A DNA stretch of 64,000 bases from a virus. Both the position numbers and the translations under genes were made by a program. The notes beneath the pieces are model-generated. The model was not told where the DNA came from, made no database searches, and saw only the letters and a list, made by a program, of their open reading frames with translations. The stretch lies in the IMG/VR virus record IMGVR_UViG_3300042301_002170, one strand, 5' to 3'. Positions 22,701 to 47,883 of this stretch are shown here, piece by piece (position 1 is the stretch's first letter; the number at the start of each line of letters is the position of its first letter).

Positions 22701-23277
22701 TATTCAAGGTGATAGAGCTATATCTGGTTATACAAGTTTACGAGAGTTTGAAAATGGTAGGGAAGCGAACACAGGAGAGAACATAGGAGAACAAAATAAC
22801 ACATTATTTACATGGTATACTAGAAATCAAAACGCAGGACAAGGTGCAATATGTGGTATTGCAGCAAGTACGGGTAATCTGAGTTTTTATGGTAATGGTG
22901 GAGTACGTGCTTATCGATTCACTCAAGATGGTGGTGGATACCAAACCGGTTCTGATAGAAGTCTTAAAGATAATATAAATAAACTAAATGACAAATTTGG
23001 AATAGAATTTATTAATAAATTAAATCCCGTAGAATTTGTATATAAAAGAGACCCCCAATATAAAAAGTTTGGATTTATAGCACAAGAAGTATCATCTTCT
23101 TTATTGGAGTATGATATGAATATGGATAATTCAACAATAGTTCAATGTGATGAAAACAATAAAGATAAAACATTAACTATAGATTATACAGAATTTATAA
23201 CTCCATTGATAAAATCAGTACAACAATTATCAGCAAGAATAGAAGAATTAGAAGCAAAACTTAGTGGTTCTATATGA
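19771..23277 (+). CDS. Tail fibre protein with C-terminal peptidase S74 intramolecular chaperone
   Basis: G/S/T/A-rich repeats; SDRSLKDNI...LNPVEFVYK...GFIAQEV...IDYTEFITPLIKSVQQL. Confidence 0.88.
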   Translation: MAITKKTLFADNLDKYNTFVTDTDPLSKYFKLTELPDTFTGGKNAFLIQGSEYLVADSLIKIELKDAKGDIIYHEPGEGIISASVGGEPIITEYYEGVSKLVSVYIYPDTAYGPCTLTILGELSSYDNNGVNTLIPANWEGSYNVKWQKEINVVPSLANTTKIRFYKRPTAKITEILSPIYKIENDLKVASAVTQSFANIKLSNLETFAGDVKRIKVFRTSVGDISDYDMIQDILVESKELLTSFGLSGSVVGNTGIFTSEVLKNQWNSGSLNATLNSTRVEAGVRLTGSGLFTYTQSLDLKSTNTYELNLDAFYSSSTSSNLGIYLVSGSTSSNIGTLIGTQPTKNLLDTNIPFKIDRDYPTASLYFSQSQGEWHVGNVSLKLSEDTAFSPDEVSFITTMPTVLGNETFNFKFEFYDVNNNYVPVAVTQSALFNGGNTNIGGTILLISSSTSQSLADLNRVSQSISGTATLYSSSANTTIVTLSGSVSGTIGTVSGSVFTLSGSVSSSITTVSQSVALTLSSSLSKVQQLADGNYTGVFIDGTTVFAPVIGGTTGYISGKFTVGAPPNSIVLDATTSTRRIYIGTGTYGNTNTNVYLDSTGKFSLGDKLSWSGTALSLTGEVIITSGTTKTAIDNAASAASTAQTTADTANAAAIAVDGKVFTDSTGKLSKTPSLTSSGLYLGSTFLGYYNGSAWKTYMANNGNFFLSGTGDNGLSWNGTTLNITGEVVITSGTTKTAIDNAASAASNAQGTANSAATAASNAQGTANSANATAIAVDGKVFTDSTGKLSRTPSLTSSGLFLGSEFLGYYNGSNWKTYMSNTGNFFLSGAGTNGLSWNGTTLSITGEISVTGGNAATTTQVNGKISAGGAASDVNSNSTTISGGKIRTGVIESTGYAYSSGDYSTTGTQIDLDNGLVRSKNFVITSAGDAKFRGNITATGGSFTGDVTAGGVTIGTSGINVTGTYGINVNSLLGLSIQGDRAISGYTSLREFENGREANTGENIGEQNNTLFTWYTRNQNAGQGAICGIAASTGNLSFYGNGGVRAYRFTQDGGGYQTGSDRSLKDNINKLNDKFGIEFINKLNPVEFVYKRDPQYKKFGFIAQEVSSSLLEYDMNMDNSTIVQCDENNKDKTLTIDYTEFITPLIKSVQQLSARIEELEAKLSGSI
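21595..22320 (+). repeat. In-frame tandem duplication in the tail fibre (318-nt and 360-nt units plus partial third)
   Basis: 57 identical nt at 21641-21697 and 21959-22015; the second unit has an extra 14-aa AASNAQGTANS-type repeat. Confidence 0.9.
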
Positions 23278-24263
23278 TAGTATTCATAACAACAGGTTAC
23301 GGAAAAAATATAGTAGGAGGTTCGGATATATGGTGTAACAACTTTGTAGAAAACATCTTACCATTAGTTACAGAAGATTACAAAATTGTAGTTGATGGTA
23401 GACCTTTATTACCAGAAAAAGATGCAATTTACACTTTCCAAAACGATGAAGAAATCGATAGGATATTGGATGAGTGTGATAAGATAGTGTTTCTACATCA
23501 TTCTTACAAACCAAATCCTATAATCAAAAAGTATCTTCACAAAACTCACACAACTTTTGTTCATGCTTTCATTCCTGATATGTTGGGATTGAATGATGAA
23601 TATGAAAACCTAATGACACGATTAGATTGGCATTGGCAAAAGGATATTTTGGATAATTCTAAAAATATCGTTTGGATAGGTTATGAGAAAGATACAATAC
23701 ATACTTACTTTCCAAACACAATTACTATTCCAAATTATTATGAATGGAAACACAACAAACCATATGAGGATGTTCAGAGTAATAAGATAGGGTATGCTGC
23801 AAGATGTGAAACAAGAAAGAACGCACATTACTTAGATGCAATACCTGCTTTTGTATTCTCAAACAAATATGATTACAAACGAATGTTAGAGGGTAGTAAG
23901 ATAAACGCAGATGTTCATACATTTATAGAGTTTGATTACCGTTTTCACGACAAATTTTTTAAAAAACAATTTAAGATATTTCACGGTTGTTACACCAAAG
24001 AACCATTTGGATACGCAATCTTTGATGCAATAGATAATGGGAAATTACCAATAATACATTCTGATTGGATGAAAGGAATTAAATATAGATACAGAGCAAT
24101 GAATAAAAGACAATTTCATTATCAGTATTTAAGAATATTAGAAGATGGATTTGAAAAAAATAAAAAACAATTTGATAGATTGAAAAAAGGATTAGAAATT
24201 TATACTGATAAAAATAAATGGATAGAAAAAGTTGTTAATCTGAATTTTTTTTCGTATATTTGA
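23274..24263 (+). CDS. Glycosyltransferase, GT-B (GT4-like)
   Basis: N-terminal GGSDIW loop; C-terminal EPFGYAIFDA resembles the GT4 E-x-F-G motif; ATGA overlap with the tail fibre. Confidence 0.7.
   Translation: MIVFITTGYGKNIVGGSDIWCNNFVENILPLVTEDYKIVVDGRPLLPEKDAIYTFQNDEEIDRILDECDKIVFLHHSYKPNPIIKKYLHKTHTTFVHAFIPDMLGLNDEYENLMTRLDWHWQKDILDNSKNIVWIGYEKDTIHTYFPNTITIPNYYEWKHNKPYEDVQSNKIGYAARCETRKNAHYLDAIPAFVFSNKYDYKRMLEGSKINADVHTFIEFDYRFHDKFFKKQFKIFHGCYTKEPFGYAIFDAIDNGKLPIIHSDWMKGIKYRYRAMNKRQFHYQYLRILEDGFEKNKKQFDRLKKGLEIYTDKNKWIEKVVNLNFFSYI
24231..24262 (+). promoter_or_regulatory. Putative Bacteroidota-type promoter (GTTG-N20-TATATTTG)
   Basis: TATATTTG at 24255-24262 with a one-mismatch -33 box; upstream of 24297. 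Confidence 0.6.
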
Positions 24264-24296
24264 TATACTTTTAATTACCAAGCTAAAAAACTGACA

Positions 24297-25064
24297 ATGC
24301 TACCAGTACTACAAGATATAAACTACTTAAAAAGTTACTTAACAAATAATTTAGAATTTAATGAACATCAGGAAGAAGAAGTAATACCAGTTCCTTACAG
24401 ATGGTCACATGGAGCAACTGATACTCATTTAGGTGATGGTTTAATTATTTATTCTCTCATTCAGTATATGAGAGCAAAAGTTTGTGTTTGCTTAGGTAGT
24501 GGAGGCGGTTTTGTGCCTAGATTAATGACACAAGCCAGATATGATTTATACAGACAGGGTATATTAGAAGGAGATGCTAATTTAAATTGGGGAGATATTG
24601 GAGTTACTTATGTAGTTGATGCTATGAATGGTATCGGTGGTAAAGTGGATTGGTTTAAAGAAGAATCTTTTTTTAGAAGAACATTTCATCCTCGTATTTT
24701 ATCAACTACTACAGAAGAAGCATTCCATAACCATTTTGTTTTAAATGATATTAAAATAGATTACTTACATATAGATGCAGGACACAGTTATGAAAATGTT
24801 AAAGAAGATTTTGAATTATATTCCCAACTTATATCCTCAAATGGAATTATTTCTATTCACGATACTGACCCTAATTTTGCGGATAGTTACTTAATAACAG
24901 ATGAAGTAAAAGATAGAGGTGATTTTGAAGATTGGCATGGTCCTATTCAGTTTGTAAAAGAATTAAAAGAAAATCCAAAATGGGAAACGTTTGATTTATT
25001 TAATTTTGGAATAGTAAAAAATAAACCGTCATCAACGGGTCTTACATTAGTTAAAAGAAAATGA
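24297..25064 (+). CDS. Class I SAM-dependent methyltransferase (Methyltransf_24-like)
   Basis: VCLGSGGGF motif I; IDYLHIDAGHSYENVKEDF; GIISIHD. Confidence 0.85.
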   Translation: MLPVLQDINYLKSYLTNNLEFNEHQEEEVIPVPYRWSHGATDTHLGDGLIIYSLIQYMRAKVCVCLGSGGGFVPRLMTQARYDLYRQGILEGDANLNWGDIGVTYVVDAMNGIGGKVDWFKEESFFRRTFHPRILSTTTEEAFHNHFVLNDIKIDYLHIDAGHSYENVKEDFELYSQLISSNGIISIHDTDPNFADSYLITDEVKDRGDFEDWHGPIQFVKELKENPKWETFDLFNFGIVKNKPSSTGLTLVKRK

Positions 25065-25909
25065 TTAGATTAGTTACAGTAACGGGTTCTAGAACAACAA
25101 CATTAAAACATATGTTAAATCACTACAAAGATAAAGTAGATGAAATGCATATTGTTGTGTATGATTGGGAAGAACAATCCAATTTATCAGAAGTTCAAAC
25201 CATAGTATCTCAATTTCCAAATGCTAAAATAGTAAAAGTAGTAGTTGAAGAACTATATAATTGGGAAAAAGTAACTAAACTTTATAATGAAGTAAAATCA
25301 ACACACCCAAATGATTGGTGGGTAATATCCGATGATGATGAATTTCATGTCTATCCTGATTCACTGCAAAGTATTATATCCAATTGTGATGCAAATGGTT
25401 GGGAAATGGTTAGAGGTGGATTTATAGATAGAATTGGTGAAGATGGTGAAATGGTTGAACTATTAGATACCGATGATATATTTGAAAAGTTCCCATACGC
25501 TGGATTTTTTAGACATCCTTTAAGTGGGGCAAACCCAAACAAAATATGTTTAGTAAAAGGTAACATAGAGATTACAAACGGGCAACATTATGCTAAAATA
25601 GATGGACATACGACTTGGAGATGGCAAGGTTGGAATCACCCACTAATTGCACCGATTAAAAAGATTAGTGTGCAAGTTCATCATTTTAAATGGGATAGCA
25701 CTTGTGCCGGTAGAATTAGACACGTTGCGAATCAAAATAAAGATTACTCATATTCGGAAGAATACAGAGTTATGTATAGAGCATTATCAAAGTATAGATT
25801 TAAATTACCATTAGATGATGAAAGATTTGGTTTTGAATTATCACCAACTTATCATTATTTAGGTTACTCAAAATGGAAACAATTAATTAATAAAATAATA
25901 TCAATATGA
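25061..25909 (+). CDS. GT-A glycosyltransferase (GT2/GT92-like)
   Basis: WWVISDDDEF DxD motif; late NPNK and VHHFKW motifs. Confidence 0.75.
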   Translation: MIRLVTVTGSRTTTLKHMLNHYKDKVDEMHIVVYDWEEQSNLSEVQTIVSQFPNAKIVKVVVEELYNWEKVTKLYNEVKSTHPNDWWVISDDDEFHVYPDSLQSIISNCDANGWEMVRGGFIDRIGEDGEMVELLDTDDIFEKFPYAGFFRHPLSGANPNKICLVKGNIEITNGQHYAKIDGHTTWRWQGWNHPLIAPIKKISVQVHHFKWDSTCAGRIRHVANQNKDYSYSEEYRVMYRALSKYRFKLPLDDERFGFELSPTYHYLGYSKWKQLINKIISI

Positions 25910-26082
25910 CGGACGAAGAATTATTATTAGAACAAAGAAAAGTAAAAGCATTAGAAAAGATTTCAAATTCATTAGATGCACTAACTGTTTGGTTTGAAGA
26001 AATAGATAAAGATGAATGGAGTAATAGAGTTCAATATTATTTATCTGAGTGGCATAAAACTGTTGAAAATACTGAAGAATAA
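25906..26082 (+). CDS. Small hypothetical protein (58 aa, absent from the ORF track)
   Basis: MTDEELLLEQRKVKALEKISNSLDALTVWFEEIDKDEWSNRVQYYLSEWHKTVENTEE*; ATGA and TAATG overlaps on both sides. Confidence 0.8.
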   Translation: MTDEELLLEQRKVKALEKISNSLDALTVWFEEIDKDEWSNRVQYYLSEWHKTVENTEE

Positions 26083-27497
26083 TGAAGTTAGGTATAATAG
26101 TACCATACAGAGATAGATACGAGCATCTACAAACTTTTAAAAAATCTATTATAAATTATTTTGAATCTAAAAAAATAGATTACGAATTAATTATAGTAGA
26201 GCAAGATGATGCAAAAGTATTTAATCGTGGAAAACTACTTAATATTGGTTTCAAATATGCAAAAAGACTTAAATGCGATTACGTTGCATTGCATGATGTA
26301 GATATGCTTCCAGTTGATGTAGATTATTCATATTCAGATGTTCCAATACATTTGGCATCTAGATTTGTATCTACACCTGAATTTAAGAGAATTGTATTTG
26401 ATGAATATTTTGGAGGTGTTACATTATTTCCCGTAGATGTATTTGAAAAAATAAACGGATACTCTAACGAATATTGGGGATGGGGTTATGAAGATAACGA
26501 TTTACTACATAGATGTAAACATTATAATGTTGATTTAGATAAAAAGGAAATAAAAACAATGGGTGGTAATACTGCTGCATTGAAGTTTAATGGAAAAAAC
26601 GCATATGTTACTGGTAAAAATCCAATAAATACTAAATCACCTATAACAATTTTTACTACATTTTACGCAGATGAATTGCAATGTAATCATGAAGCATACG
26701 ATGATATATTATCTGTGTTTTCTATTCCAGGATACGATTGTTTAATATCATACAATTCATATAAAAGATATAACTTTGAAATGTATGATTCTCGTAAAGA
26801 AGTTATTTATGTAAACTCAAATATTAAAACAAACTATAAAACTAATATTGCAGTAACAATCGATTTTGATGTTAGAAAAGTAAAAATGTATCAGGATGGA
26901 AATTTAGTAGGTGAAACTACATTTTCAGGTAGAGCGTATCCATATGATAAAGTTGAGAATTTTTATTTAGGAGTTGGTGACCCTAATAGAGAAGAAAATA
27001 ATAAATATTTTAAAGGATTAATAAGTTCTTTTTCAATTTTTTCTAAACTATTAGATGAAGATGAAATAAAAGAAATATCAAATAATCAATTCTTTTCATT
27101 GAGCCAAAATTTTGGAAATTACAAATCATCACATGCATTGGAAGTTTGTTATGATGCTAAATTTATAAAAGATTACGAATTAATTGATTTATCTGGTAAT
27201 AATAACAATGGTATTTTAAATGAATGTGAAATGGTAGGCTATACTTTTGATGATTCTAAAATAATAGAAATACCATTCAGAAGAGATTGTACATTTAAAT
27301 TATTGGCACATGATGAAAATGGTTATGTTGGAAATGGTTGGAAAAATATAACAACTAGATACAATCAATTAAAATATCATAATGAAGTTGCAAAGGGTTA
27401 TAAAGACCCTAAATTTGATGGGTTAAGTAATTTAGAATACAAAGAACATACATTTGCCCATACAAATAATCAAACTCACGTTTTAGTAGGAATATGA
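26082..27497 (+). CDS. GT7 (beta-1,4-galactosyltransferase-like) with inserted LamG domain
   Basis: IIVPYRDR, FNRGKLLN, HDVD, YFGGV, WGWGYEDND; LamG ~26568-27250; C-terminal H and DGLSNL. Confidence 0.88.
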   Translation: MKLGIIVPYRDRYEHLQTFKKSIINYFESKKIDYELIIVEQDDAKVFNRGKLLNIGFKYAKRLKCDYVALHDVDMLPVDVDYSYSDVPIHLASRFVSTPEFKRIVFDEYFGGVTLFPVDVFEKINGYSNEYWGWGYEDNDLLHRCKHYNVDLDKKEIKTMGGNTAALKFNGKNAYVTGKNPINTKSPITIFTTFYADELQCNHEAYDDILSVFSIPGYDCLISYNSYKRYNFEMYDSRKEVIYVNSNIKTNYKTNIAVTIDFDVRKVKMYQDGNLVGETTFSGRAYPYDKVENFYLGVGDPNREENNKYFKGLISSFSIFSKLLDEDEIKEISNNQFFSLSQNFGNYKSSHALEVCYDAKFIKDYELIDLSGNNNNGILNECEMVGYTFDDSKIIEIPFRRDCTFKLLAHDENGYVGNGWKNITTRYNQLKYHNEVAKGYKDPKFDGLSNLEYKEHTFAHTNNQTHVLVGI

Positions 27498-28954
27498 AAA
27501 AACATAAATTAGGTGTATGTGTTCCATATCGTAATAGAGAAGAACATCTAAATAAATTTATACCAATCGTATCTAAATTCTTAAAAGAAAGAGATATAGA
27601 TTTTAAAATTTATTTTGGACATCAGGTAGATGACAAATTATTTAATAGAGGTGCAATGAAAAATGTTGCAGCCAAACATGCGTTTGAGGATGGTTGTGAT
27701 TATATAGTTTGGCATGATATAGATATGGTTCCAGAAGATGATACCTGTGATTATTCGTATCCATCGGATGTACCTCAACATATTGCCGTAAACATATCTC
27801 AATCCGATTATATGTTAAAATACGAACAATACTTTGGTGGGGCAGTGGTGTTTACTAAAGAACAAGCTGAAGCAACAAACGGTTATTCTAATGATTATTG
27901 GGATTGGGGTATGGAAGATGATGACTTATTTTGGAGATGTGTTAAAGAGAATATGGTTAATACTACTACTTTAGATTATCACGTAGAAAAAACTATAGCT
28001 GAATTTAATGGTACATCTTCTTTTATAAAAATTCCTAATAGATTTGGAAATGTATTAAATAACTCACATACCATTTCAATTTTAGTAAATTCTGCACAAC
28101 AAATTGAAAAAGTTGCAATCTGGTTAATAGGAGATGGTAATAGAAGATTTGTTGAATATCCTATATTTAGAAAACCAGGATATGATTGGGGTATATCATT
28201 TAACAATAGTAGAGCATATACTGCTATGTTATGGAGTGCTAATAAAGACCAAATTTATCAATGGTTTAAAAGATACGAAGGTGAATGGACTTGGGTTACT
28301 ATGGTAGTAGATACTGGTAGTAATAATATGCATTTTTATTTAAATGGTAGAGAAAGTTCTGCAAGAAATGGAACAGGTACTTCATCTCCAATAACATTTA
28401 ATTCTCCATTAAAACATTATGGTTCAGAGCCATATTATATTGGTAGAACTCCATCTGTTTTAGGATACGAACCAAACGCGTTTTTTAAAGGAAAAATATC
28501 TGATATAAAATTTTGGAATAGAGCATTAACTCAAACTGAAATATCAAATTTACATACTTCACATCCTACTGATAATCTAATATTACATTATGATTTTGAA
28601 AATATAGATAATACAAATCAAAAAGTAATAGATGCAAATGATGGAGTAAATGGTACATTCTATAACGTAGAATTTAAAAAAGAAAAAATATCAATTCCGT
28701 ATGTAATTTTACCACATAGAAAAAATGGTAGATTTTTATGTTTACCACATCAAACAGAAGGATTAATTACAGTAGGTGGCATAGATAAGTGGGCAAAGGG
28801 TGAAACTACTGCTAGAAATGAAAGGAGATACGTTTTAGAAATGCAACAAGATAAAATTGATTATAAAAACGATGGATTAAGTACCTTAAAATATGAATTA
28901 ATCGAAATAAAAGAATTAGATGAAAATTCTGTTATGATAAATGTAAAACTATAG
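27494..28954 (+). CDS. GT7 paralog with inserted LamG domain
   Basis: VPYRNR, FNRG, HDID, YFGGA, WDWGMEDDD; LamG with FKGKISDIKFWNRALT; C-terminal DGLSTLKY. Confidence 0.88.
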   Translation: MKKHKLGVCVPYRNREEHLNKFIPIVSKFLKERDIDFKIYFGHQVDDKLFNRGAMKNVAAKHAFEDGCDYIVWHDIDMVPEDDTCDYSYPSDVPQHIAVNISQSDYMLKYEQYFGGAVVFTKEQAEATNGYSNDYWDWGMEDDDLFWRCVKENMVNTTTLDYHVEKTIAEFNGTSSFIKIPNRFGNVLNNSHTISILVNSAQQIEKVAIWLIGDGNRRFVEYPIFRKPGYDWGISFNNSRAYTAMLWSANKDQIYQWFKRYEGEWTWVTMVVDTGSNNMHFYLNGRESSARNGTGTSSPITFNSPLKHYGSEPYYIGRTPSVLGYEPNAFFKGKISDIKFWNRALTQTEISNLHTSHPTDNLILHYDFENIDNTNQKVIDANDGVNGTFYNVEFKKEKISIPYVILPHRKNGRFLCLPHQTEGLITVGGIDKWAKGETTARNERRYVLEMQQDKIDYKNDGLSTLKYELIEIKELDENSVMINVKL

Positions 28955-30346
28955 ATGCAAAATAATATTTTTGAAGAAACAAAAAAAAGTTTAGATTCGG
29001 TAGGTTGTGGGTTTTGTTTAGCAAAGTGGACACAAGTTACTATGCATTTGGGTACAGGATTAACTCACTCATGCCACCACCCAACTGCACATAAAATTCC
29101 AATAGCAGAAATACAAAGAAATCCATCTGCATTGCATAATACTAAGTTTAAAAAGTATAAAAGAAAAGAAATGTTGGATGGTAAAAGACCAGCAGAATGT
29201 GATTATTGTTGGAATATAGAAGATAATTCGGATAATTATTCGGATAGAGTTTATAAATCATCGGAACCCTGGTCTAAACCCCATTTGGATGAAATAACTC
29301 ATTCAGATTGGAGAGCAGATTTTAATCCAAGATATGTTGAAGTTAGTTTTTCTAACACTTGTAATTTTAAATGTTCATATTGTGGACCTGAATACTCATC
29401 TCAATGGTTACAAGAAGTTAAACAATTAGGTGGATTTCCAACTTCGGATTCATTTAACAGTTATGATAAACTGGTTGAAAAAAATAAATTACCAATACTA
29501 CAAAGTGAATATAACCCATATGTAGAAGCATTTTGGAAATGGTGGCCAGATTTATATTCCGATTTAAATACTTTTAGAATAACAGGAGGAGAACCTCTTT
29601 TATCAAAAGATACTTGGAAAGTTTTGGATTATATTATAGAAAACCCAAATCCAAATAGAGAATTAAAGTTTGCAATAAACTCTAATTTAGGAGTTACTGA
29701 TGAATTAATTAATAAATTAATCAATAAATTGGATAGAATAATTTCAGAAGATAGAATTAAAGAAGTTATTATTTTTACATCAGTAGATGCGTATGGAGAG
29801 CAAGCGGAGTATATCCGTAATGGTTTAAACTTTAATAAATTTTGGGATAATGTAAACAAAATACTTTATAAACTACCTAAAGTTACAATAACCATAATGT
29901 CTACTTATAATATTTTAAGTCCATTTAGTTATAATAAGTTAATAGAAAAAGTTTGGGAAACCAAAAAAGAACATCAAAATTTAGAAAGATATTGGCAACA
30001 CCCCATCTTATTAGATACATCTTATTTAAGATTTCCACAACATCAAAGTGTTAAGTTATTATTTGATGAACAGAAAGAAACAATATTAGATAACGCTAAA
30101 ACTGCTTTATATTTAGGTGTTCCAATTTTTACAAATACTCATATGGGAATGACTGAAGTTGAAACAGAAAAAATTAAACGAATATATGATTGGGCAATAT
30201 CAAATACAAATTCTGATATTTTAAACACAAATAGAAAAGATTTTGTAAAATTTGTAGATGAACATGATAAACGAAGAGGAACTAATTTTGTAAAAACATT
30301 TCCAGAATTAGAAGAATTTTATAAAAAAATTAAGAATGGTAATTAA
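28955..30346 (+). CDS. Radical SAM protein with N-terminal Twitch/SPASM-like domain
   Basis: CNFKCSYC, TGGEP; N-terminal C...SCHH...CDYCW. Confidence 0.9.
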   Translation: MQNNIFEETKKSLDSVGCGFCLAKWTQVTMHLGTGLTHSCHHPTAHKIPIAEIQRNPSALHNTKFKKYKRKEMLDGKRPAECDYCWNIEDNSDNYSDRVYKSSEPWSKPHLDEITHSDWRADFNPRYVEVSFSNTCNFKCSYCGPEYSSQWLQEVKQLGGFPTSDSFNSYDKLVEKNKLPILQSEYNPYVEAFWKWWPDLYSDLNTFRITGGEPLLSKDTWKVLDYIIENPNPNRELKFAINSNLGVTDELINKLINKLDRIISEDRIKEVIIFTSVDAYGEQAEYIRNGLNFNKFWDNVNKILYKLPKVTITIMSTYNILSPFSYNKLIEKVWETKKEHQNLERYWQHPILLDTSYLRFPQHQSVKLLFDEQKETILDNAKTALYLGVPIFTNTHMGMTEVETEKIKRIYDWAISNTNSDILNTNRKDFVKFVDEHDKRRGTNFVKTFPELEEFYKKIKNGN

Positions 30347-32563: not shown

Positions 32564-32580
32564 GCTAAAAAATATTTTAA

Positions 32581-34997: not shown

Positions 34998-35009
34998 CAA
35001 ATATAGTTT

Positions 35010-39543: not shown

Positions 39544-39546
39544 ATT

Positions 39547-40524
39547 TTATTTAAATTCGTTTTTGTGTTCTAAATACCAATTATAAGCAAGTTTTAATCC
39601 ATCTTTTAATGGTGTAGTTGCACTCCATCCTAAATTATTATAAATTTTATTAGAATCTATTTTTCTTGTTGGAATCATAGATGGTTTGCCACTAATAAAT
39701 TCAGTTGGTGCATCATAGTTGGCAACTTGTTTCATAATATCTAATACTTCTAATACAGAATATACTGAATTAGAACCAACATTATAAACTTCAAAACCAT
39801 CTTTGATTTCTTTTTCTAAAACAACTTGCAATGCTTCAACAAAATCTTCAATATAAAGTAAATCTCTTAACTCAGAACCATCACCCCAAACAGGAATAGG
39901 ATTCATTTCATCTGCAACTTTTCTAATAGTTGCAGGAGTAACGTGGCATTTATTAAAGTCATATTTGTCGTGAGGACCGTATAAATTGGCAGGTCTTATT
40001 ACAGTTGTTTTCATAGTACGAGGTAGGTGTTTTGCATATAGTTCACATTGAACTTCTGCATATCTTTTCATCCAACCAACTGGAAAATAAACTGGATATG
40101 GTTCATTAAATAAGAAATCAGTTTCAATAACTGCTTCATCTCCCTTTGGTGGATATACAGTATTTGAAGAAATAAAAATATAATGTTTAACAAAGTTTCT
40201 CCAAGCCGCATCAATTAAAAAATTATTCATTGATACGTTGGGTGTAACGTGTGCTAATGGGTCATCTACCGTATCAACTGCGTTTGATGTAGTTGCTGCA
40301 CAATGAAACACAACTTCAACTCCATTAGCAGCATTTAAACAACCATCGTATGTTTGTAAATCAAAGTGAGTATATTCTACAGAATTTATAGATTTTCTTA
40401 CACCTCTTTTGTGTAGATTGACTCTAATATTTGTATAACCTTCTTTTATCAATCTATTTGTTAGATTTTGACCAACCAAACCAGAACCACCTGTGATAAG
40501 GATTTTTGAACTTTTATTTATCAT
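39547..40524 (-). CDS. Extended SDR, GDP-fucose synthase-like epimerase/reductase
   Basis: ITGGSGLVG, RPANLYGPHD, VWGDGSELRDLLY; YxxxK appears as VGWMK. Confidence 0.85.
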   Translation of the reverse strand: MINKSSKILITGGSGLVGQNLTNRLIKEGYTNIRVNLHKRGVRKSINSVEYTHFDLQTYDGCLNAANGVEVVFHCAATTSNAVDTVDDPLAHVTPNVSMNNFLIDAAWRNFVKHYIFISSNTVYPPKGDEAVIETDFLFNEPYPVYFPVGWMKRYAEVQCELYAKHLPRTMKTTVIRPANLYGPHDKYDFNKCHVTPATIRKVADEMNPIPVWGDGSELRDLLYIEDFVEALQVVLEKEIKDGFEVYNVGSNSVYSVLEVLDIMKQVANYDAPTEFISGKPSMIPTRKIDSNKIYNNLGWSATTPLKDGLKLAYNWYLEHKNEFK

Positions 40525-41294
40525 AATATTTTATTGTTTTTTATGTAACCGTATAACTCTTCACTTATTAATTTATAACCTTCCAAATTTGGATGTCTGG
40601 ATGCTTTTGATTCAAATTGTGTATCTTGATTTTCCCAAACATTAACTTCTTTAATTTTATTTAAATAATCTCCAAATGCTTGTTTATTAAATTCCCAATA
40701 TTTTGATTTATCTATTAGGTTGGTAATATCATCTTTTTTATCTAAATCAATTAACATACTTTCAAAACTATCACACATTATGTAATTAATATTATAATGC
40801 TTAAATAATTTTTGAATAAAAATAATGTAATTTTGGTTTACAATATTATAGTAGTTCTGATTAAACATTTCTCCAATAAAAAATTGTTTATATTTTGTAA
40901 AAAAAGAATCATATAATGTATTACCACTACTGTATGAATTGATAAATTTATGTGGTTCTTCAATTAGGTGTTTAACAGACCATGTAATCCACTCACCATC
41001 TGGTAAAAATGGAACATAATCTCTTAGAGAAGAACTCCACATTATAACAACAAAATCATTATTTTTTATTTTTTCGGATTGAACATCTGAAACAATTTGA
41101 TTAAATATTTTATTATTAGCATTACCACTAACTCCGTTGTTTATAAACGGCACATTTAGTTTATCTGCTAAAAATTTAACCCAACTATTTTCTTTACGAT
41201 ATGCTGGTCTTTCTTCTTTAGATAACGAATCTTCAACTAATCTATTACATCCTTGTCCTTCCGTCCAACTATCGCCATATACGTGTAATATCAT
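40521..41294 (-). CDS. SGNH/GDSL-fold protein
   Basis: YGDSWT, NGVSGNAN, SRHPN. Confidence 0.8.
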   Translation of the reverse strand: MILHVYGDSWTEGQGCNRLVEDSLSKEERPAYRKENSWVKFLADKLNVPFINNGVSGNANNKIFNQIVSDVQSEKIKNNDFVVIMWSSSLRDYVPFLPDGEWITWSVKHLIEEPHKFINSYSSGNTLYDSFFTKYKQFFIGEMFNQNYYNIVNQNYIIFIQKLFKHYNINYIMCDSFESMLIDLDKKDDITNLIDKSKYWEFNKQAFGDYLNKIKEVNVWENQDTQFESKASRHPNLEGYKLISEELYGYIKNNKIL

Positions 41295-42226
41295 AATAAC
41301 TTATTTATATAGTAATCATATGTAATTTCCAATGCTTTTTCAAAACCAAGAACTGGAAGTAATCCTATTTGGGTTTGTTTAGTAATATCCATCTGTCTTC
41401 TTAAATCTCCATTTGGTTTACTACTATCCCAATTTATAGATATTGGTTTTTTACTTATTTTGATTAAAGTTTCAATCATTTGTTTTATGGTAATTTCTTC
41501 ACCTGCACCGAAGTTAATTGTAGTGTGAATTTTATCCGTATATAGTTTTAAAATAGCATCGGCAACATCACCTGCATAAACAAAATCTCTAATAGGAGAA
41601 CCATCACCCCATGCTTCAATTGAATGGGTTGCTTCATAAATCTTTTTTATAGTTGATGAAATAACCGTACCATTACCACTAAAATCATCGTATTCACCAA
41701 ATATATTAGCAGGTCTTATAATACTCCATTTATCATATCCATATTGAACTTTATATGATTCTAATAAAATTTCACCCATTCTTTTACTCCAAGATGGAAA
41801 CCAATCGGATTCACTTGGTAATGATTTCCAAACATCATCTTCTACAAATTTTTCTGATGGAGAATAAACACCAACTGAACTTACAAATATTAACCATATA
41901 TTATGTTTAGAACATTGGTTAATTATTTCAGTATTAATTTTAAATGATGGGTATAAAAAATCAACAGGTTTTTCTTTTGCTCTAATTGGAGAACCCTTTA
42001 TACCAAAGCAATTAAAAACAACATCAGGAGATTCATAAAAAAATAAATTCTTTATATTTTCTTCTATTGTTAAATCTAATTCGTAAAATGTAAATTTATC
42101 AGATATTGGTAAATTATTGGAATATTTAACATCAACTCCAATTACATCATAACCATCATTTAAACATTTTTTTACTAAATGGACACCAACTAAACCACTA
42201 CAACCTGTTATTAAAACTTTTTTCAT
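41291..42226 (-). CDS. Extended SDR, GDP-fucose synthase-like
   Basis: ITGCSGLVG, RPANIFG, WGDGSPIRDFVY; YxxxK appears as PSWSK. Confidence 0.85.
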   Translation of the reverse strand: MKKVLITGCSGLVGVHLVKKCLNDGYDVIGVDVKYSNNLPISDKFTFYELDLTIEENIKNLFFYESPDVVFNCFGIKGSPIRAKEKPVDFLYPSFKINTEIINQCSKHNIWLIFVSSVGVYSPSEKFVEDDVWKSLPSESDWFPSWSKRMGEILLESYKVQYGYDKWSIIRPANIFGEYDDFSGNGTVISSTIKKIYEATHSIEAWGDGSPIRDFVYAGDVADAILKLYTDKIHTTINFGAGEEITIKQMIETLIKISKKPISINWDSSKPNGDLRRQMDITKQTQIGLLPVLGFEKALEITYDYYINKLL

Positions 42227-42235
42227 ATTATATTT

Positions 42236-43423
42236 TTAAGGAATTATTTTTAAATCTCTAATTGTATCATTTACCAAATTATTTATATCATATGTAAAAA
42301 ATACTCTTTGATTTTCTTGTATTTTTTCTATATTATTTTTATACCATTCTTCTATATGTTCTTTACCCAAAGAATGTATTCGTTTTAATTCAATTAGTGT
42401 TTGATTTAATCTTTCTTCATTATTTGATATTTTATCAAATGAGTAATCTATTAAATCATTATACAATGTAAATCCATAATTTTTTAATTGAGTGTTTGTA
42501 AATACATCGCCTATTATTAAAAATGGGTGGCAATTTGCAAGTGGTTTAAAACTCTTTTCTGTTAAATTTAAACTTTCGGAATTGAAACCTGACTCTAATA
42601 TTATGCTAAAATTTGTTTTTGAATAAATTAATTTAGTAGATAGTGGTTGAACTTCAATGTTTGGATAATCCCAATCTATTATAGTATGTGGTAATTCATC
42701 AAATTTAGAATAGTATTTCCACAAATCTTTTAATTCTTCTTTTTTTGAAATTAATAAATTTAAATCAATATCATCATTTTTTATTAAACATGAAAATTTT
42801 GTGTCATTTATTAATCCTGTTTTTAACAACCACAACATAGCTTGAACTCTAAATGTTTTTGTAGAATTACGATTATATAATAAAAAAAATGAATCTTTTT
42901 CACCAGTAACATAATCATTTGGTCCACAAGTTATAGTTGTAATTTGCTCTGCTTCACTAAATACATTAGGTAATGTTAATTTCTTATAATGACTAGCCCA
43001 CCATCCTAACAAATATGGTTTTGCTATAACTAATATTTCATTTGTAAAATTTTTAAAATAATTATTAATTGTAATTAAAATAATTTGATTTGATTTTAAT
43101 TTGTAATTATTTTTTAATTGTATTAATTTTAAAACAAATTCTGTCATATTATTTCCCTCGTGAAAAGAAGAAAATACTAATTTTACGTTTGGTTTGTTTG
43201 ATACTAATTCAAATACATTTTTAAAATAATCAATATTTTCTTTCAATACTGTATATGTCATTTCTCTATTAAATGTAAAATTCCAAATTATGTGTTCGGT
43301 TTGATTTAATTCAAATGTATGAAATTTAAATCCATAATTTACATCTAAGTAATCAATTTTACAAGTACCATTACCATTTGGGACATTTTTAAAGTCAATA
43401 TTTTCATAATAAAACTTCATCAT
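42236..43423 (-). CDS. Putative GT-B glycosyltransferase, GT10-like TEK motif
   Basis: FLLYNR...R; FSIILES...LTEKSFKPLANCHPF. Confidence 0.5.
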   Translation of the reverse strand: MMKFYYENIDFKNVPNGNGTCKIDYLDVNYGFKFHTFELNQTEHIIWNFTFNREMTYTVLKENIDYFKNVFELVSNKPNVKLVFSSFHEGNNMTEFVLKLIQLKNNYKLKSNQIILITINNYFKNFTNEILVIAKPYLLGWWASHYKKLTLPNVFSEAEQITTITCGPNDYVTGEKDSFFLLYNRNSTKTFRVQAMLWLLKTGLINDTKFSCLIKNDDIDLNLLISKKEELKDLWKYYSKFDELPHTIIDWDYPNIEVQPLSTKLIYSKTNFSIILESGFNSESLNLTEKSFKPLANCHPFLIIGDVFTNTQLKNYGFTLYNDLIDYSFDKISNNEERLNQTLIELKRIHSLGKEHIEEWYKNNIEKIQENQRVFFTYDINNLVNDTIRDLKIIP

Positions 43424-44682
43424 ATTAAATTATAAAAATAGTTATCTTTTTCTTTTTTTAAATGATATGCACTAACGTATTCGTGGTTTTTAATAAATCT
43501 ATCTTTATTATTTACATAATAATTTTTTATTTCTTTTTTTAATTTTGATAATCTTACAATTTCATCCAAAACCATATGTAATCTTTTTTTAGCATCAATT
43601 TCTAAATCATAATCATGATTTATAATATCTTCAAATAAATCTAAATCAGGATGTTCTTTTTTTAATATTTCAACATGCCTATATGATGCTAAAAAAATTG
43701 GTAATTGATAAAAATAAAATGGTTTAAATGATTTTTCGGTCATATGAACATCTTTTATTTCATAGTGCGATTCAGTAACTATATTAATATAACTATTTTC
43801 GTATGATTTACATTCTATGTGTAAAAAATGTAAATAATTATCTGGGTTATCAAACCAATCTTTACCGGTTTCGTAAAAACTTAATTTTGGTTTAGAACAA
43901 ATTTCATAATAACTGTGTAGTAATTTTTTATCATTTGAACCGTCTATAAAAAATTGTTCTCCATATGTGGCTAATAGTGGATGATTCATTAATCCATATG
44001 TTAAAGACCAATCTATTAATCCAGAATCTAATAATTCATTATTTTTAAGTAATGTTAATATTGCAATTCTATGAGTCTTTGGTCTTCTATTTAAACATAG
44101 AAATAAAAACTCTTTATCTTCTACAAATGGAATTTTATATGGATTTTCAACTAATGAACTTGTACATAATTCTAATAAAAAATTTGATTTATATAAGTTA
44201 ATTGGTGTATTTTTTTTTATATCATTAGCTAATGAGTTATTATTTACAATATGAAATTGTTTTGGATTTAATTCTTTTTTATCAATTACTTTTGATAGAT
44301 TTTCTACATCAATACTAAGATTCATATAACTTTCGTGTTCACTTAAAAAAATTACTTTTAAATTTTTATTTCTAACACAATATTCAACTTCTTCCGATAG
44401 CTGCCATTCATTTTCATTGAACAAATTATTATATGAACAATAGTGTACAACGATATAATAATAATTTTCATTTGGGCTTATATCCGATAATTTACAATAA
44501 TTTTTTTCGTAATTATTATCCACCAAATCTTTACCTAAATTTGTAAAAAAATGCATAGGAGCTCCAACCTCAATATTGGGTATTGCTTCACAATTCAATT
44601 TTTCATTTAAAAAGATTAAATTAGGTATGGGTTTTCCATTATCATCCCACTTATCAAAAACTAAATTTAAAATACTACCCAT
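43420..44682 (-). CDS. Putative GT-B glycosyltransferase, GT10-like TEK motif
   Basis: FLCLNRRPKTHR; INIVTES...MTEKSFKPF; start likely the ATG at 44682 rather than 44706. Confidence 0.5.
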   Translation of the reverse strand: MGSILNLVFDKWDDNGKPIPNLIFLNEKLNCEAIPNIEVGAPMHFFTNLGKDLVDNNYEKNYCKLSDISPNENYYYIVVHYCSYNNLFNENEWQLSEEVEYCVRNKNLKVIFLSEHESYMNLSIDVENLSKVIDKKELNPKQFHIVNNNSLANDIKKNTPINLYKSNFLLELCTSSLVENPYKIPFVEDKEFLFLCLNRRPKTHRIAILTLLKNNELLDSGLIDWSLTYGLMNHPLLATYGEQFFIDGSNDKKLLHSYYEICSKPKLSFYETGKDWFDNPDNYLHFLHIECKSYENSYINIVTESHYEIKDVHMTEKSFKPFYFYQLPIFLASYRHVEILKKEHPDLDLFEDIINHDYDLEIDAKKRLHMVLDEIVRLSKLKKEIKNYYVNNKDRFIKNHEYVSAYHLKKEKDNYFYNLI

Positions 44683-45296
44683 TTTCCTGTTCCGTAATGT
44701 GGCCAAACTTTTTCATACTCATACCAAATAATATCATTTGGAATTTCACTTTTAACATTCCAAGTTTCAACCGTTGGTGTGTATGTTGAAACTCCATTAT
44801 CTTCTACAACAAATGTAATTGGTAAATCAAAGTTTTTTGCATATTTGTAATTTTCCATAAAAGCACCCGTCTCAAATGCCATATCTCCAACAAAACACCA
44901 TACTTTATCTTGAGAACCATTTCTTTTGTTTGCCATAGCAACTCCCATTGCAATTGAAATCGTTCCACCAACTATTGCTGAAGAATAAAATTTTTCATCT
45001 TTATTTACAATAGTGATACTTCTACCAGCGAGAATCTCATCTTCTAACCATTTTGAATCAACTCCTTTTACTAATGCGTGATAATGAGAACGCCAAGTAC
45101 TAAATACCCAATCGGTTGATTTAATTCTTTTTCCAATTTCAATTATTTGTTCTTCATTTCCACCACTTAAATGTATAGGACCTCGTATGTTACCACCCTC
45201 CCATGCATCTGCTATTCTTCTTTCAAAATCAATTAATCCTTCTTTATCCCATAACGATTCCTTAACGATTGGGAAATTTTCTATGTTTTTTATCAT
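44667..45296 (-). CDS. ThDP-dependent E1 alpha-like subunit
   Basis: GPIHLSGGNE, TWRSHYH, GDMAFETG...VEDN ThDP-binding motif; 209 aa. Confidence 0.9.
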   Translation of the reverse strand: MIKNIENFPIVKESLWDKEGLIDFERRIADAWEGGNIRGPIHLSGGNEEQIIEIGKRIKSTDWVFSTWRSHYHALVKGVDSKWLEDEILAGRSITIVNKDEKFYSSAIVGGTISIAMGVAMANKRNGSQDKVWCFVGDMAFETGAFMENYKYAKNFDLPITFVVEDNGVSTYTPTVETWNVKSEIPNDIIWYEYEKVWPHYGTGKWVVF

Positions 45297-45829
45297 CTGT
45301 CTCTTTTTTGTAAGATTGGGTTTTCAGTCGGCCATTCCATTTGAAACTCCGGGTCATTCCATTTAATTACACCTTGCTCATTTGCATCTACATATTGACC
45401 ATCATAAAATAAATTATAATGAAACATGCAATCAGTAAGTGCATAGTGGCCATTTGCAAACCCAGGAGGAACTAATACCTGTTGTCTGTTACGTTCAGAT
45501 ATGATGAATGATTCCCAATCCCCATAGGTAGGAGAATCTTCTCTTACATCCAAAACAATAAGGTATATATCACCAACCGCAGCCTGAACTAACTTCCAAG
45601 TTTTAGTATCATAGTGTAATCCTCTCAATACTCCTTTGTATGATTTTGAAAATCTACCATGTACCGAAACATATGGTGTAAGTTTTAACATTACAGGGTG
45701 TTCCTCTGAATGAAATGTTGTAAATATCTCACCTCTGTATTCTCTATAAATTGATGGTGTGTATATTTCTACTTCGTTTCCGAATTTGTTTGATGGCGTT
45801 ACATCAAACTGTTTCCAATTTGAACTCAT
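45293..45829 (-). CDS. rmlC: NDP-4-keto-6-deoxysugar 3,5-epimerase
   Basis: DYRG-like EYRGEIF, GVLRGLHY, DVREDSPTYG, PPGFANG, IKWNDP. Confidence 0.92.
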   Translation of the reverse strand: MSSNWKQFDVTPSNKFGNEVEIYTPSIYREYRGEIFTTFHSEEHPVMLKLTPYVSVHGRFSKSYKGVLRGLHYDTKTWKLVQAAVGDIYLIVLDVREDSPTYGDWESFIISERNRQQVLVPPGFANGHYALTDCMFHYNLFYDGQYVDANEQGVIKWNDPEFQMEWPTENPILQKRDR

Positions 45830-45879
45830 ATTAATTTTTTTACTTATTTTTTTATAAAAATTTAATTATTTCAAATACA

Positions 45880-46878
45880 TTATTTGGTTTGCCATGTATC
45901 CATAACACCACATATCTTATCATAATAACTTTTACTATTATGTCTATAATCATAGTATTTTGTAGTACCATTTGGTAGTTCTATACCATAAAAATCATCA
46001 TATTCTTCTAATAAAGTTTGACATTCTTCGTAGTTTGCAATTGGTATTCCACCAACATCGTTTATTTGTCCAATAGGACAATATCCAATTGCCAAATTTG
46101 GGTCATTCCAATCAAACCCCTTATCACTTATATATTTTTTAAATCCGTTATCCATATTAAATTCAAATTGTGGTCCAATATGAGCACTAAATTCTCCACT
46201 TATTAATCGGTGTTCGGATATTCCATCATCCGTTACATCTTCATCTTGGTCACAATATGCTTCATACCAAGTTTTACCTGTTTGTGCATAATGTAAATAA
46301 ATCATACCATTACCCACAGTTCTACTAAATTGTAATTTATCTTCCAAAGATATTTCTTGAAAACTCGGAGTTCCACAAATTGAATAATAAAAATAAAGAC
46401 TTTTACCAATACCTATATTAGTTCTTTTTATAGAATCATAATATGCTTCTAACGAATGGCAACTTAAATTTAATTTAGATATTGCAAATCTCTCCTCACC
46501 AGTTGCTCTTGCTAAAAAGCTAGATGGATTCCAAATTTGTCCTTGTAATGTTTCAAAATGTAAATGTAATTTATTTAATAACTCTCTATCAAATTCAGTT
46601 ACCAATGTTTCAAAAGGTTCATTTATTTTATCATAATCCGAATACCAATCGGCTGCTTTTAATAATCTAATACCCTCTACTAATTCTTCGCTAATCATTT
46701 GCGGAGTTCTATTTTTTGAAAACCCACCAACTAATGCAAAAGTTTTAACATATGCAATAAAATCGTTTTTTATAACATTTTCTAGCATTTTGTACCACTT
46801 TTCTTTAATCTTACTATCAAATAATGTAGTATTTACTTCTATAACATTATTATCAATATTTCTAAAATATAGTTTCAT
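45880..46878 (-). CDS. Hypothetical protein
   Basis: 332 aa; His motifs LNKLHLHFE and LNLSCHSLE, plus YAQTGKTW; no confident family. Confidence 0.6.
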   Translation of the reverse strand: MKLYFRNIDNNVIEVNTTLFDSKIKEKWYKMLENVIKNDFIAYVKTFALVGGFSKNRTPQMISEELVEGIRLLKAADWYSDYDKINEPFETLVTEFDRELLNKLHLHFETLQGQIWNPSSFLARATGEERFAISKLNLSCHSLEAYYDSIKRTNIGIGKSLYFYYSICGTPSFQEISLEDKLQFSRTVGNGMIYLHYAQTGKTWYEAYCDQDEDVTDDGISEHRLISGEFSAHIGPQFEFNMDNGFKKYISDKGFDWNDPNLAIGYCPIGQINDVGGIPIANYEECQTLLEEYDDFYGIELPNGTTKYYDYRHNSKSYYDKICGVMDTWQTK

Positions 46879-46911
46879 AATTAATTAATTTGTTTTTTTA
46901 TATTTTAATTA

Positions 46912-47883
46912 CTATGTATTATTTGCGTAACCTAATGGAAATCCGTTTCTAAATTCTGCTCCCATTCTTGGTACTATCATTTGATATGCTTCTATAAGTT
47001 GTTCAATACCCGCATCTAAACTCCAAGTTGGTTTCCAACCAGTTGCTTCGATTTTGGCATTAGAAACAATATAATCTCTTTTATCGGGGTCTTCGTAATA
47101 ATCATCATAAACTATTGCAAATTTTGGAACTTGTAATTTTATCTTTTCCAATAATTGTTGTTTATTTAAATTTGAATCACTTAAACCAACATTAAATACT
47201 TCACCTTTGTGTGTATCATAGTTGTGTAACATAAATACAAACGCATTAGCTACATCTTCTATATGAATAAAGTTTCTTTTAAAGTTTTTCTCAAATACTA
47301 CGATGTATTTATCAGTAATTGCTTTATAAGTAAAATCATTTACTAATAAATCTGTTCTCATTCTTGCAGATACTCCAAAGACGGTTGCTAATCTAAAAAT
47401 GATTGCATCTGTATGTTCTTTTAGAAGTCTTTCTGCTTCAACCTTAGTAGAACCATAAACCGATATTGGATTTAATGGAGATTCTTCAGTACATTCCGAT
47501 TGACCTTCCGCAATCCCATATCCACTATTTGTATTTGGATATAAAATCTTTTTACCTTTACCTTTTGTAAATTTTATTATGTTTTGAATTTGAATTAAAT
47601 TTAATTCTTTTGCCAATTGAGGTTCGGCATCGCAAGCAGGAAATCCTACAATGGCTGCTAATGGAATTATTACATCTGCCTGATTGCAAAGTTTTTCCAA
47701 TAGTTTTTCATTACGAACATCTCCGTATATAAACTTGAATTCAGAATGATGTGTGTATTGTAGTAAAGAAGTTTGATTGAATAGTAGTTTATCTAAAACT
47801 ATAACGGAATGCCCTTCTTGCAACATTCTACCAACTATAACAGAACCCAAATAACCGGCTCCACCTGTAATTAATATCTTCAT
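46912..47883 (-). CDS. NAD-dependent epimerase/dehydratase (extended SDR)
   Basis: ITGGAGYLGS, intact YGSTK, FRLATVFG. Confidence 0.9.
   Translation of the reverse strand: MKILITGGAGYLGSVIVGRMLQEGHSVIVLDKLLFNQTSLLQYTHHSEFKFIYGDVRNEKLLEKLCNQADVIIPLAAIVGFPACDAEPQLAKELNLIQIQNIIKFTKGKGKKILYPNTNSGYGIAEGQSECTEESPLNPISVYGSTKVEAERLLKEHTDAIIFRLATVFGVSARMRTDLLVNDFTYKAITDKYIVVFEKNFKRNFIHIEDVANAFVFMLHNYDTHKGEVFNVGLSDSNLNKQQLLEKIKLQVPKFAIVYDDYYEDPDKRDYIVSNAKIEATGWKPTWSLDAGIEQLIEAYQMIVPRMGAEFRNGFPLGYANNT

Follow-up and report, generated by a model that had tools for sequence, protein, structure and literature searches.

In pelagimyophages and cyanomyophages, a hypervariable island termed the 'host recognition cluster' (HRC) lies between VrlC and gp14 and, in the account of its authors, holds fibre genes together with glycosyltransferases and radical SAM cassettes; modification of the host O-chain is the function that they favour (PMC7029224). 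Here we describe an island at positions 23274-47883 of IMGVR_UViG_3300042301_002170, a 64,000-nt stretch of viral DNA from IMG/VR (hereafter the window). It is a local form of a cassette that recurs widely, in which a conserved core is joined to a tailoring part that varies between strains. Tentatively, and with slightly less than even confidence, we read it as a soluble cytoplasmic line for glycan assembly and tailoring that is kept with the tail-fibre gene, the most likely acceptor being a phage structural protein and the fibre before any other.

The likeness to the HRC or lipopolysaccharide ('LPS gene') islands, so far as these are described (PMC7029224; PMC12801897), lies in a large, strain-variable island in the structural region of aquatic T4-like myophages, where tail-fibre genes stand with glycosyltransferases, nucleoside diphosphate-sugar enzymes and radical SAM cassettes. 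However, the phage lineage is another one, with a terminase nearest to that of Flavobacterium phage immuto (54% identity), and so, it appears, is the site in the backbone. Moreover, unlike the HRC as described in those accounts, the island has a defined core of a GT-B glycosyltransferase, a methyltransferase, a GT-A glycosyltransferase, a small protein, a GT7-LamG pair, an N-twitch radical SAM enzyme and a free-standing LamG protein.

Two further groups of viruses invite comparison. In the Mimivirus fibril and the chlorovirus capsid, virus-encoded sugar-nucleotide pathways and soluble transferases decorate the viruses' own surface proteins with clade-specific sugars. The likeness to these giant-virus clusters is one of logic only, since they belong to eukaryotic viruses and use other enzyme families. 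Some mycobacteriophages carry glycans on virion proteins, attached in the cytoplasm (Freeman et al. 2023, as summarised in PMC12619734 and PMC12801897). Like the island, which is known from its genes alone, those systems have soluble phage glycosyltransferases that adjoin structural genes. In the summaries they comprise 2-4 genes and use common host sugars, whereas the island has 26 genes, with a sugar-nucleotide branch of its own and tailoring by radical SAM enzymes.

Conserved core and distribution of the cassette

The window is AT-rich (GC about 29%) and has the backbone of a T4-like myophage: baseplate wedge and primase genes and a fused SbcCD-like gene precede the island, and genes for a 1999-aa head polyprotein, the terminase TerL, the portal and the prohead protease come after it. 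The interval 23274-47883, which has the SbcCD-like gene on one side and the head polyprotein and TerL on the other, is coding throughout, with 16 open reading frames (ORFs) on the plus strand and 10 on the minus strand. An earlier note on this DNA had placed a glycan island of about 24 genes between the tail-fibre and head genes. The island is real and its ORFs fill the interval; the count was low, and the list had omitted the 58-aa ORF at 25906-26082, the free LamG gene at 30336 and the ORF at 45880. Pfam and NCBIfam bear out its methyltransferase, two GT7-LamG proteins, four radical SAM proteins, PhyH dioxygenase, three short-chain dehydrogenases/reductases (SDRs) and E1 alpha/beta pair, and its 'GT4-like' and 'GT2-like' transferases and three SGNH proteins were upheld by the fold, motif and profile evidence given below. 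Two labels needed amending: the three 'GT10-like' proteins are paralogues with a TEK..KP motif, without a Pfam or PDB sequence match to back the name, and the 'RmlC' protein is indeed an RmlC-fold cupin, nearer to GDP-heptose epimerases than to dTDP-rhamnose enzymes. As for its interpretation, the part that finds support is that of a large phage apparatus which builds and tailors an unusual glycan between the fibre and head genes; the destination is weighed further on.

The core half of the cassette (23274-30995) lies on the plus strand. It opens with a GT-B fold glycosyltransferase (GT4-like; 23274-24263) that belongs to no sequence family and is present in 70/80 of the relative loci compared; its AlphaFold model, built on 25 homologues, has a predicted local distance difference test (pLDDT) score of 89.5 and finds GlgM, PimA and BshA in Foldseek at E values of 1e-11 to 1e-8. 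A class I SAM methyltransferase follows (Methyltransf_24, Pfam 4.7e-10; 24297-25064; 74/80 relatives), probably a sugar O-methyltransferase, and then a probable GT-A glycosyltransferase of the GT2/GT92-like kind (25061-25909), with a weak Pfam match to Glyco_tranf_2_4, an invariant DDDE (D91-D92-D93-E94) and Atlas neighbours in GT2/GT92 clusters at 0.97. The small helical protein of 58 aa (25906-26082) has no Pfam match. It has 59 homologues in 53/80 relatives, at the same position and always immediately 5′ of the GT7-LamG genes, and combines a highly conserved helical core (…LEQRKVKALEKI.NSLDALT.WFEEIDK..W…YYL.E.H) with variable tails rich in Ser, Thr, Glu and Pro. We considered it as a precursor of a ribosomally synthesised and post-translationally modified peptide (RiPP) for the radical SAM enzymes and rejected the idea, as the core is highly conserved and the tails alone vary.

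The next two genes encode paralogous GT7 (beta4GalT-like) proteins with a LamG domain, at 26082-27497 (Pfam GT7N 1.4e-19, GT7C 1e-17, Laminin_G_3 5.6e-12) and 27494-28954 (Pfam; beta4GalT1 match, E 2e-30). Both carry the GT7 motifs including DxD, with H74, D75 and D77 invariant. In the second, the alignment to beta4GalT1 is limited to residues 3-154, and the LamG domain (about residues 171-351) interrupts or follows the catalytic part; CAZy GT7 enzymes (beta4GalT), in contrast, have an uninterrupted catalytic domain. The core closes with a radical SAM enzyme with an N-terminal twitch (28955-30346; CxxxCxxC; 79/80 relatives), which scores 353 bits against NF033640, whose curated cut-off is 170 bits, and with a free-standing, lectin-like protein of LamG/pentraxin fold (30336-30995; family in 74/80 relatives). 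The model of the latter (pLDDT 79) matches the PAPP-A LamG domain, pentraxins and the neurexin LNS domain in Foldseek. Family profiles of the GT-B, LamG, GT10-like and GT-A proteins found no match among PDB sequences.

Synteny across relatives, which the earlier note had named as a check, shows this core conserved in fixed order over the 80 loci: GT-B, methyltransferase, GT-A, small helical protein, two or three GT7-LamG genes, N-twitch radical SAM and free LamG. The variable part usually runs SDR, epimerase, E1 alpha, GT10-like, SDR, SGNH, SDR and E1 beta, and elsewhere gives way to, or is lengthened by, additional radical SAM genes, a HAD phosphatase, DUF6071, DUF6065 or up to six copies in tandem of a 288-aa family. 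The last, which has no Pfam match, stands in 3-6 tandem copies in the variable part of several relatives (L047:12-18 kb; L003, L015, L016 and L056).

Among the 90%-identity protein clusters searched, 1986 match the GT7-LamG protein, and 261 relatives of it were confirmed in IMG/VR on contigs of up to about 290 kb; for the cassette this gives a count of at least 261 IMG/VR contigs. Five cassette-bearing relatives were checked. Their TerL proteins are 70-88% identical to that of the window and four are complete genomes of 238-287 kb; the checked carriers are therefore giant T4-like phages. A tblastn search with the GT7-LamG and GT-B proteins against 50,697 phage records recovered only a LamG piece from an archaeal virus and one uncultured phage of 484 kb, megablast of the whole island gave no match among cultured phages, and a literature search for the cassette found no report. 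Immuto has the primase-to-terminase backbone in common with the window, and neither GT7-LamG nor GT-B has a homologue in it; the cassette has the appearance of an insertion into an immuto-like backbone. Full-length GT7-LamG genes also occur in 'bacterial' metagenome-assembled genomes (MAGs), where the contigs that bear them are short or of phage size and were binned with Flavobacteriaceae, Pelagibacterales and other groups; true bacteria have the bare GT7 domain only. Such contigs are probably mis-binned phage DNA, and give at best a weak hint of the host. Those deposited within MAGs include L083 (CBFHJJ010000001.1, 248 kb), L081 (VHCC01000006.1), L087 and L090, under the labels Flavobacteriaceae, Pelagibacterales and Flavobacteriales.

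Linkage to the tail fibre

The array is headed by the gene for a tail fibre of 1168 aa (19771-23277, plus strand; 24% Ser+Thr) with a C-terminal S74 intramolecular chaperone (Pfam Peptidase_S74, 1.5e-9), which is the most likely candidate acceptor. The start of the first island gene overlaps the fibre stop in an ATGA, as the earlier note had it; the junction reads ctatATGAtag. From the fibre start to 38998 the largest gap is at most 33 nt, and the sole sense-strand TATTTATA in this array stands 23 nt 5′ of the fibre gene. No convincing intrinsic terminator was found between the fibre gene and the island. Sense-strand copies of TATTTATA lie 11-32 nt before six structural gene starts, where 0.32 are expected (P about 1e-6); the sites are 6328-6335, 11283-11290, 19748-19755, 48090-48097, 57059-57066 and 59418-59425. 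The motif is the reverse complement of the T4 late promoter consensus TATAAATA, which itself shows no overall enrichment in the window. Judged by its sequence and placement, TATTTATA is a candidate late promoter of this lineage.

The linkage extends to the relatives. In 70/70 of those with a GT-B gene, this gene is co-oriented with the one before it, and 29 have the same 4-nt overlap; the genes 5′ of it include several different giant fibre-like ORFs, at times with small genes between. Moreover, the enzymes appear to be soluble. A scan of 25 island proteins, which took in all but the 58-aa one, gave no membrane-spanning segment, the criterion being a 19-residue hydrophobic segment at or above 1.6, and none of these proteins is a flippase, polymerase, priming transferase or transporter of the kind found in Wzx/Wzy or ABC-dependent loci.

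Loci of some sub-clades hold additional genes between the fibre genes and the cassette. These are prolyl 4-hydroxylase (P4H)-like 2-oxoglutarate (2OG)-Fe(II) oxygenases and a Gnt1-like homologue of the eukaryotic Skp1-type hydroxyproline GlcNAc-transferase (PF11397, 4e-20); the sites noted for such genes are in L038, L041, L048 and L069, about 2-5.5 kb 5′ of GT-B, and at L050:2778-3332. Together they hint at hydroxyproline-linked protein glycosylation in a phage. We keep hydroxyproline O-glycosylation as a lead only, since these genes adjoin the cassette in sub-clades alone and the oxygenases lie dispersed. For the fibre, collagen-type hydroxylation with glycosylation was rejected, as no protein of the window has Gly-X-Y repeats. 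A stretch of about 318 bp is also tandemly duplicated within the fibre gene of the window, with identical 22-nt hairpin-like sites at 21663-21684 and 21981-22002 and protein repeats at residues of about 620-700 and 725-810.

Sugar-nucleotide block

The first gene of the minus-strand block (46912-47883) encodes an SDR near PDB entries 6VO6 and 6VO8 (E 2.6e-103 over residues 2-310, that is 309 residues), which we take to be Campylobacter jejuni Cj1427, the GDP-D-glycero-D-manno-heptose C4 dehydrogenase. It is without the TDE (Thr-Asp-Glu) motif of 4,6-dehydratases. On the same strand stands an RmlC-fold 3,5-epimerase of the GDP-4-keto-heptose type (45293-45829), which matches GDP-D-glycero-4-keto-D-lyxo-heptose 3,5-/3-epimerases (8DB5, 7M14, 8DCO) at about 5e-42 and the best dTDP RmlC at 1.5e-25, a difference of about 16 orders. 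Two extended SDRs, likewise on the minus strand, are GDP-fucose-synthase-like and putative C4 reductases, at 41291-42226 (PDB GDP-fucose synthetase 1E7R, 4.8e-26; NCBIfam) and 39547-40524 (Pfam Epimerase 1.4e-41; GDPFucSynFcl 1.4e-38). Because the first SDR matches 6VO6 and the cupin matches GDP-4-keto-heptose epimerases far above RmlC, the sugar branch looks, from these matches, like GDP-heptose-type chemistry rather than dTDP-rhamnose.

A scheme of dehydrogenase, epimerase and reductase is that of the capsule heptose pathway of Campylobacter (Cj1427, Cj1430 and Cj1428; PMC10680097). The island has the same three enzyme types, with strong similarity. Unlike that pathway it is phage-borne, its substrate is a predicted one, and it is joined to a thiamine diphosphate (ThDP)-dependent E1 alpha/beta pair, which the Campylobacter pathway lacks. 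A sugar-1-phosphate nucleotidyltransferase (NTP_transferase) was not found in 3/4 of the complete relatives, nor a GmhA-type isomerase (SIS) in 4/4, and the GDP-sugar would therefore have to be supplied by the host.

The E1-like subunits are minimal ones, both on the minus strand. The alpha-like subunit (44667-45296; 209 aa) consists of a PP domain with a GDM...EDNG motif and matches Pfam E1_dh (1.8e-16), PDH_E1_alph_y (2.7e-26) and human pyruvate dehydrogenase (PDH) E1 alpha (1e-8); the beta-like subunit (38995-39543; 182 aa) is a Pyr domain only (Pfam Transket_pyr 5.5e-6; NCBIfam PDH E1 beta 2.3e-8). The matches cover positions 7-172 of 300 in the alpha profile and 5-164 of 174 of the Pyr domain in the beta profile. 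Full-length E1 subunits, in contrast, have about 320-370 aa; those of the island are single-domain proteins and the beta-like one is without the C-terminal domain. Plm8/Plm9 (paulomycose) and AviB1/AviB2 (eurekanate) put a two-carbon branch from pyruvate onto keto-sugars (PMC4802897), and the island resembles them in that its two ThDP subunits, alpha- and beta-like, are encoded separately and in the company of a 3,5-epimerase, reductases and an O-methyltransferase. The substrates differ, being dTDP-deoxyhexoses for these enzymes and likely a GDP-heptose for the island pair, whose activity is putative.

In the window and its close relatives L004 and L019, the sugar-nucleotide block (38995-47883) as a whole is reversed in orientation, whereas in most relatives (for example L011 and L038) it follows the core on the same strand. 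In the window, extra radical SAM, SGNH, GT10-like and PhyH genes separate the core from the inverted block. We looked for inverted repeats as the cause of the inversion and found none convincing at its flanks.

Tailoring genes and their bacterial relatives

Downstream of the free LamG gene, the plus strand of the window carries further radical SAM genes. Those at 30995-32563 (302 bits; 34% identical to the core member at 28955) and 33786-34997 (324 bits; Pfam SPASM and Radical_SAM) are NF033640 paralogues, and the one between them (32581-33789) has a Cys-rich C-terminus, a Pfam Radical_SAM match of 1.8e-11 and a partial NF033640 match of 47 bits.

When 301 Bacteroidota genomes were screened against the NF033640 cut-off, three lay above it, one of them a MAG with a phage-sized contig, and a fourth genome had a sub-threshold pair. 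At the three bacterial loci (the other two above the cut-off and the sub-threshold genome) the radical SAM genes form tandem paralogue clusters, with a GDSL/SGNH neighbour in 3/3. Other neighbours are a fusion of methyltransferase and GT2, a GT11-like and a GT-C-like transferase, a polysaccharide deacetylase and a carbamoyltransferase. Since the bacterial genes stand beside SGNH, methyltransferase and glycosyltransferase genes, the family, with its SGNH partners, probably tailors glycans, as far as gene neighbourhoods can tell. At one of these loci (L172; G085:C2:1207000-1226999, ORFs 5369-17769), two N-twitch radical SAM genes have three PhyH genes as neighbours, along with genes for a WelO5-like oxygenase, a methyltransferase and a GDSL protein. 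Adjoining them is the gene for a secreted protein of 842 aa that combines Cys-containing repeats with a Peptidase_S74 domain and a sorting domain of the type IX secretion system (T9SS). The arrangement resembles, on the cellular side, a fibre with its tailoring enzymes.

Among the SGNH proteins of the window, that at 40521-41294 (minus strand) is an SGNH/GDSL hydrolase or acyltransferase by Pfam (Lipase_GDSL, 1.4e-5) with invariant S9, N60, D232 and H234. The SGNH-like hydrolase or acyltransferase at 35010-36035 (plus strand) has a GCS block I and invariant S10, N59 and H320, and that at 37119-38228 (plus strand) is a divergent paralogue of it which aligns within family A6 and has no homologue in the 80 relatives; both are tied to the family of 40521 by hhalign with 96% probability. 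The candidate GT10-like transferases, assigned at the level of motif, lie at 36035-37126 on the plus strand (a paralogue of 42236) and at 42236-43423 (TEKSFKP motif and paralogy) and 43420-44706 (paralogy; true start perhaps 8 codons downstream) on the minus strand. None of the 27 members of this family has a Pfam match, and PDB sequences gave none for the family either. GT10 clusters are the closest named ones to 43420 in the Atlas, at only 0.80, which makes them a lead. Two proteins are specific to the window and absent from the 80 relatives: a PhyH-type Fe(II)/2-oxoglutarate dioxygenase (38225-38998, plus strand; Pfam PhyH 7e-18) and a 332-aa protein (45880-46878, minus strand) without a Pfam, NCBIfam or PHROG match.

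Destination of the glycan

Circumstantial support for the virion as the destination comes from the array shared with the fibre gene, the conserved fibre linkage in 70 relatives and the all-soluble set of enzymes. From the gene content, folds, synteny and distribution we infer a substrate, an order of steps, their timing and an acceptor. The host would give a GDP-sugar, probably GDP-D-glycero-D-manno-heptose or GDP-mannose, of which the Cj1427-like SDR (46912) would oxidise C4 and the cupin (45293) epimerise C3/C5. The ThDP pair (44667 and 38995) may put a pyruvate-derived two-carbon branch on the keto sugar, and the GDP-fucose-synthase-like SDRs (41291 and 39547) would reduce C4. The GT-B and GT-A enzymes, the two LamG-bearing GT7 proteins and up to three candidate transferases would assemble the oligosaccharide, which the methyltransferase, three SGNH proteins, the PhyH dioxygenase and four radical SAM enzymes would edit. 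With part of the cassette varying between strains, virions would differ in their sugar coat. A more specific picture, possible in our estimate although rather doubtful, has fibres or other virion proteins coated in the cytoplasm with a C-branched, methylated and acylated heptose-type oligosaccharide that is edited by radical SAM enzymes, with virion 'serotypes' arising from the variable part and the LamG-bearing GT7 proteins reading the growing glycan or the fibre.

Several points weigh against a glycan made for the virion along these lines. If all carriers form one lineage, the synteny with the fibre may reflect inheritance and not function. Host O-antigen glycosyltransferases are soluble too, so that the missing Wzx, Wzy and priming transferase leave room for host machinery. 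Neither an evident acceptor motif nor collagen-like repeats were seen in the fibre of the window, and we identified no promoter for the minus-strand block. As to hydroxyproline, the P4H-like genes are scattered, with 4-5 per genome, and the Gnt1-like gene occurs at only four loci and is absent from the four complete genomes. The S74 neighbour is found at 1/3 of the bacterial radical SAM loci only and is thus suggestive, not general. The searches with the GT7-LamG and GT-B proteins place the cassette in no cultured phage record. Lastly, that 6VO6 and 6VO8 are Cj1427 is a presumption.

Instead of the particle, the enzymes might serve the host envelope, feeding a lipid-linked O-antigen, capsule or protein-glycosylation pathway of the host during a long infection, with the effect that competing phages are kept from adsorbing or that progeny are not lost on cell debris. 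We consider this less likely than the virion, yet a serious rival; it is the published reading of the HRC islands of pelagimyophages and cyanomyophages, as those accounts present it (PMC7029224; PMC12801897). The closest characterised homologues of the sugar enzymes act in a bacterial capsule pathway, the bacterial radical SAM loci include a GT-C-like membrane transferase, a deacetylase and a carbamoyltransferase, and variability between strains suits surface antigens. However, a flippase, polymerase, ligase, priming transferase and membrane protein are all absent among the 25 island proteins scanned. The array also seems to be under the late-type motif of the fibre gene, rather late for an altered surface to be of use, and full-length GT7-LamG genes are confined to phage-like contigs. 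The late structural setting, with the fibre gene and away from genes of nucleotide metabolism, likewise speaks against hypermodification of DNA, whereby an oligosaccharide would sit on hydroxymethylated phage bases and counter restriction, as in T-even phages. The GT-B model does resemble the T4 alpha- and beta-glucosyltransferases and viral proteins labelled 'DNA alpha-GT', but no better than it resembles dozens of other GT-B enzymes; a ThyA-family gene is present in 3/4 of the complete relatives, yet a complete 238-kb relative (G001) is without one. Diverse DNA glycans have been reported from phages (Pyle et al. 2024, as cited in PMC12619734). Beside the island, in agreement with the earlier note, we found no hydroxymethylase or JBP-type partner set, and the genomes searched gave no Tet/JBP match, a weak negative given that the control was silent too. 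DNA as the acceptor is, in our view, very improbable indeed.

Improbable too, although less so than modified DNA, is a product that ends up on neither virion, DNA nor cell surface, such as a free or lipid-linked glycoconjugate, or a modification of amino acids in the fibre or the 58-aa protein to which the sugar genes are secondary. Twitch/SPASM radical SAM enzymes frequently act on peptides, the cassette holds a conserved small protein with variable Ser/Thr-rich tails, and at L172 the radical SAM pair, the three PhyH genes, the WelO5-like oxygenase and the methyltransferase flank a Cys-repeat, fibre-like S74 protein. Against this, the 58-aa protein, with its highly conserved core, is not RiPP-precursor-like, the fibre of the window has just three Cys, and the other two bacterial radical SAM loci are sugar-tailoring loci without an S74 protein. 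Moreover, seven or more transferase genes argue for a glycan as the main product.

To our knowledge, phage particles are commonly assumed to be free of phage-made sugars. If the preferred reading is true and fibres are sugar-coated, it would revise views on host recognition, on the loss of phages to decoys and grazers and on what lies behind the frequency of 'LPS-like' genes in aquatic phages. New elements, set against what is known, are a core of defined and conserved composition, the assignment of the sugar to the heptose type, E1 subunits of one domain each, the link of NF033640 with sugar tailoring and the extent of the lineage. In compact form, the island also offers enzymes of putative activity, among them a lectin-like, LamG-bearing GT7, one-domain E1 alpha and beta subunits and a radical SAM family tied to sugar tailoring in phages and Bacteroidota. 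For bench work, the predicted heptose offers a concrete candidate substrate.

Neighbouring genes

Two large genes of the backbone flank the fibre gene and the island. Upstream, a 1052-aa ORF (16365-19523, plus strand) joins a calcineurin-like phosphoesterase (SbcD/gp47-like) and an AAA_23/SMC_N ATPase (SbcC/gp46-like) in one chain; in T4 these are two separate proteins. Right after the island, the 1999-aa ORF (48101-54100, plus strand) has an N-terminal cytidylyltransferase/NMNAT-like domain and one hydrophobic segment near residue 1418, and residues 1051-1172 of its product are 54% identical to an open frame of immuto (L161:14388-14768).

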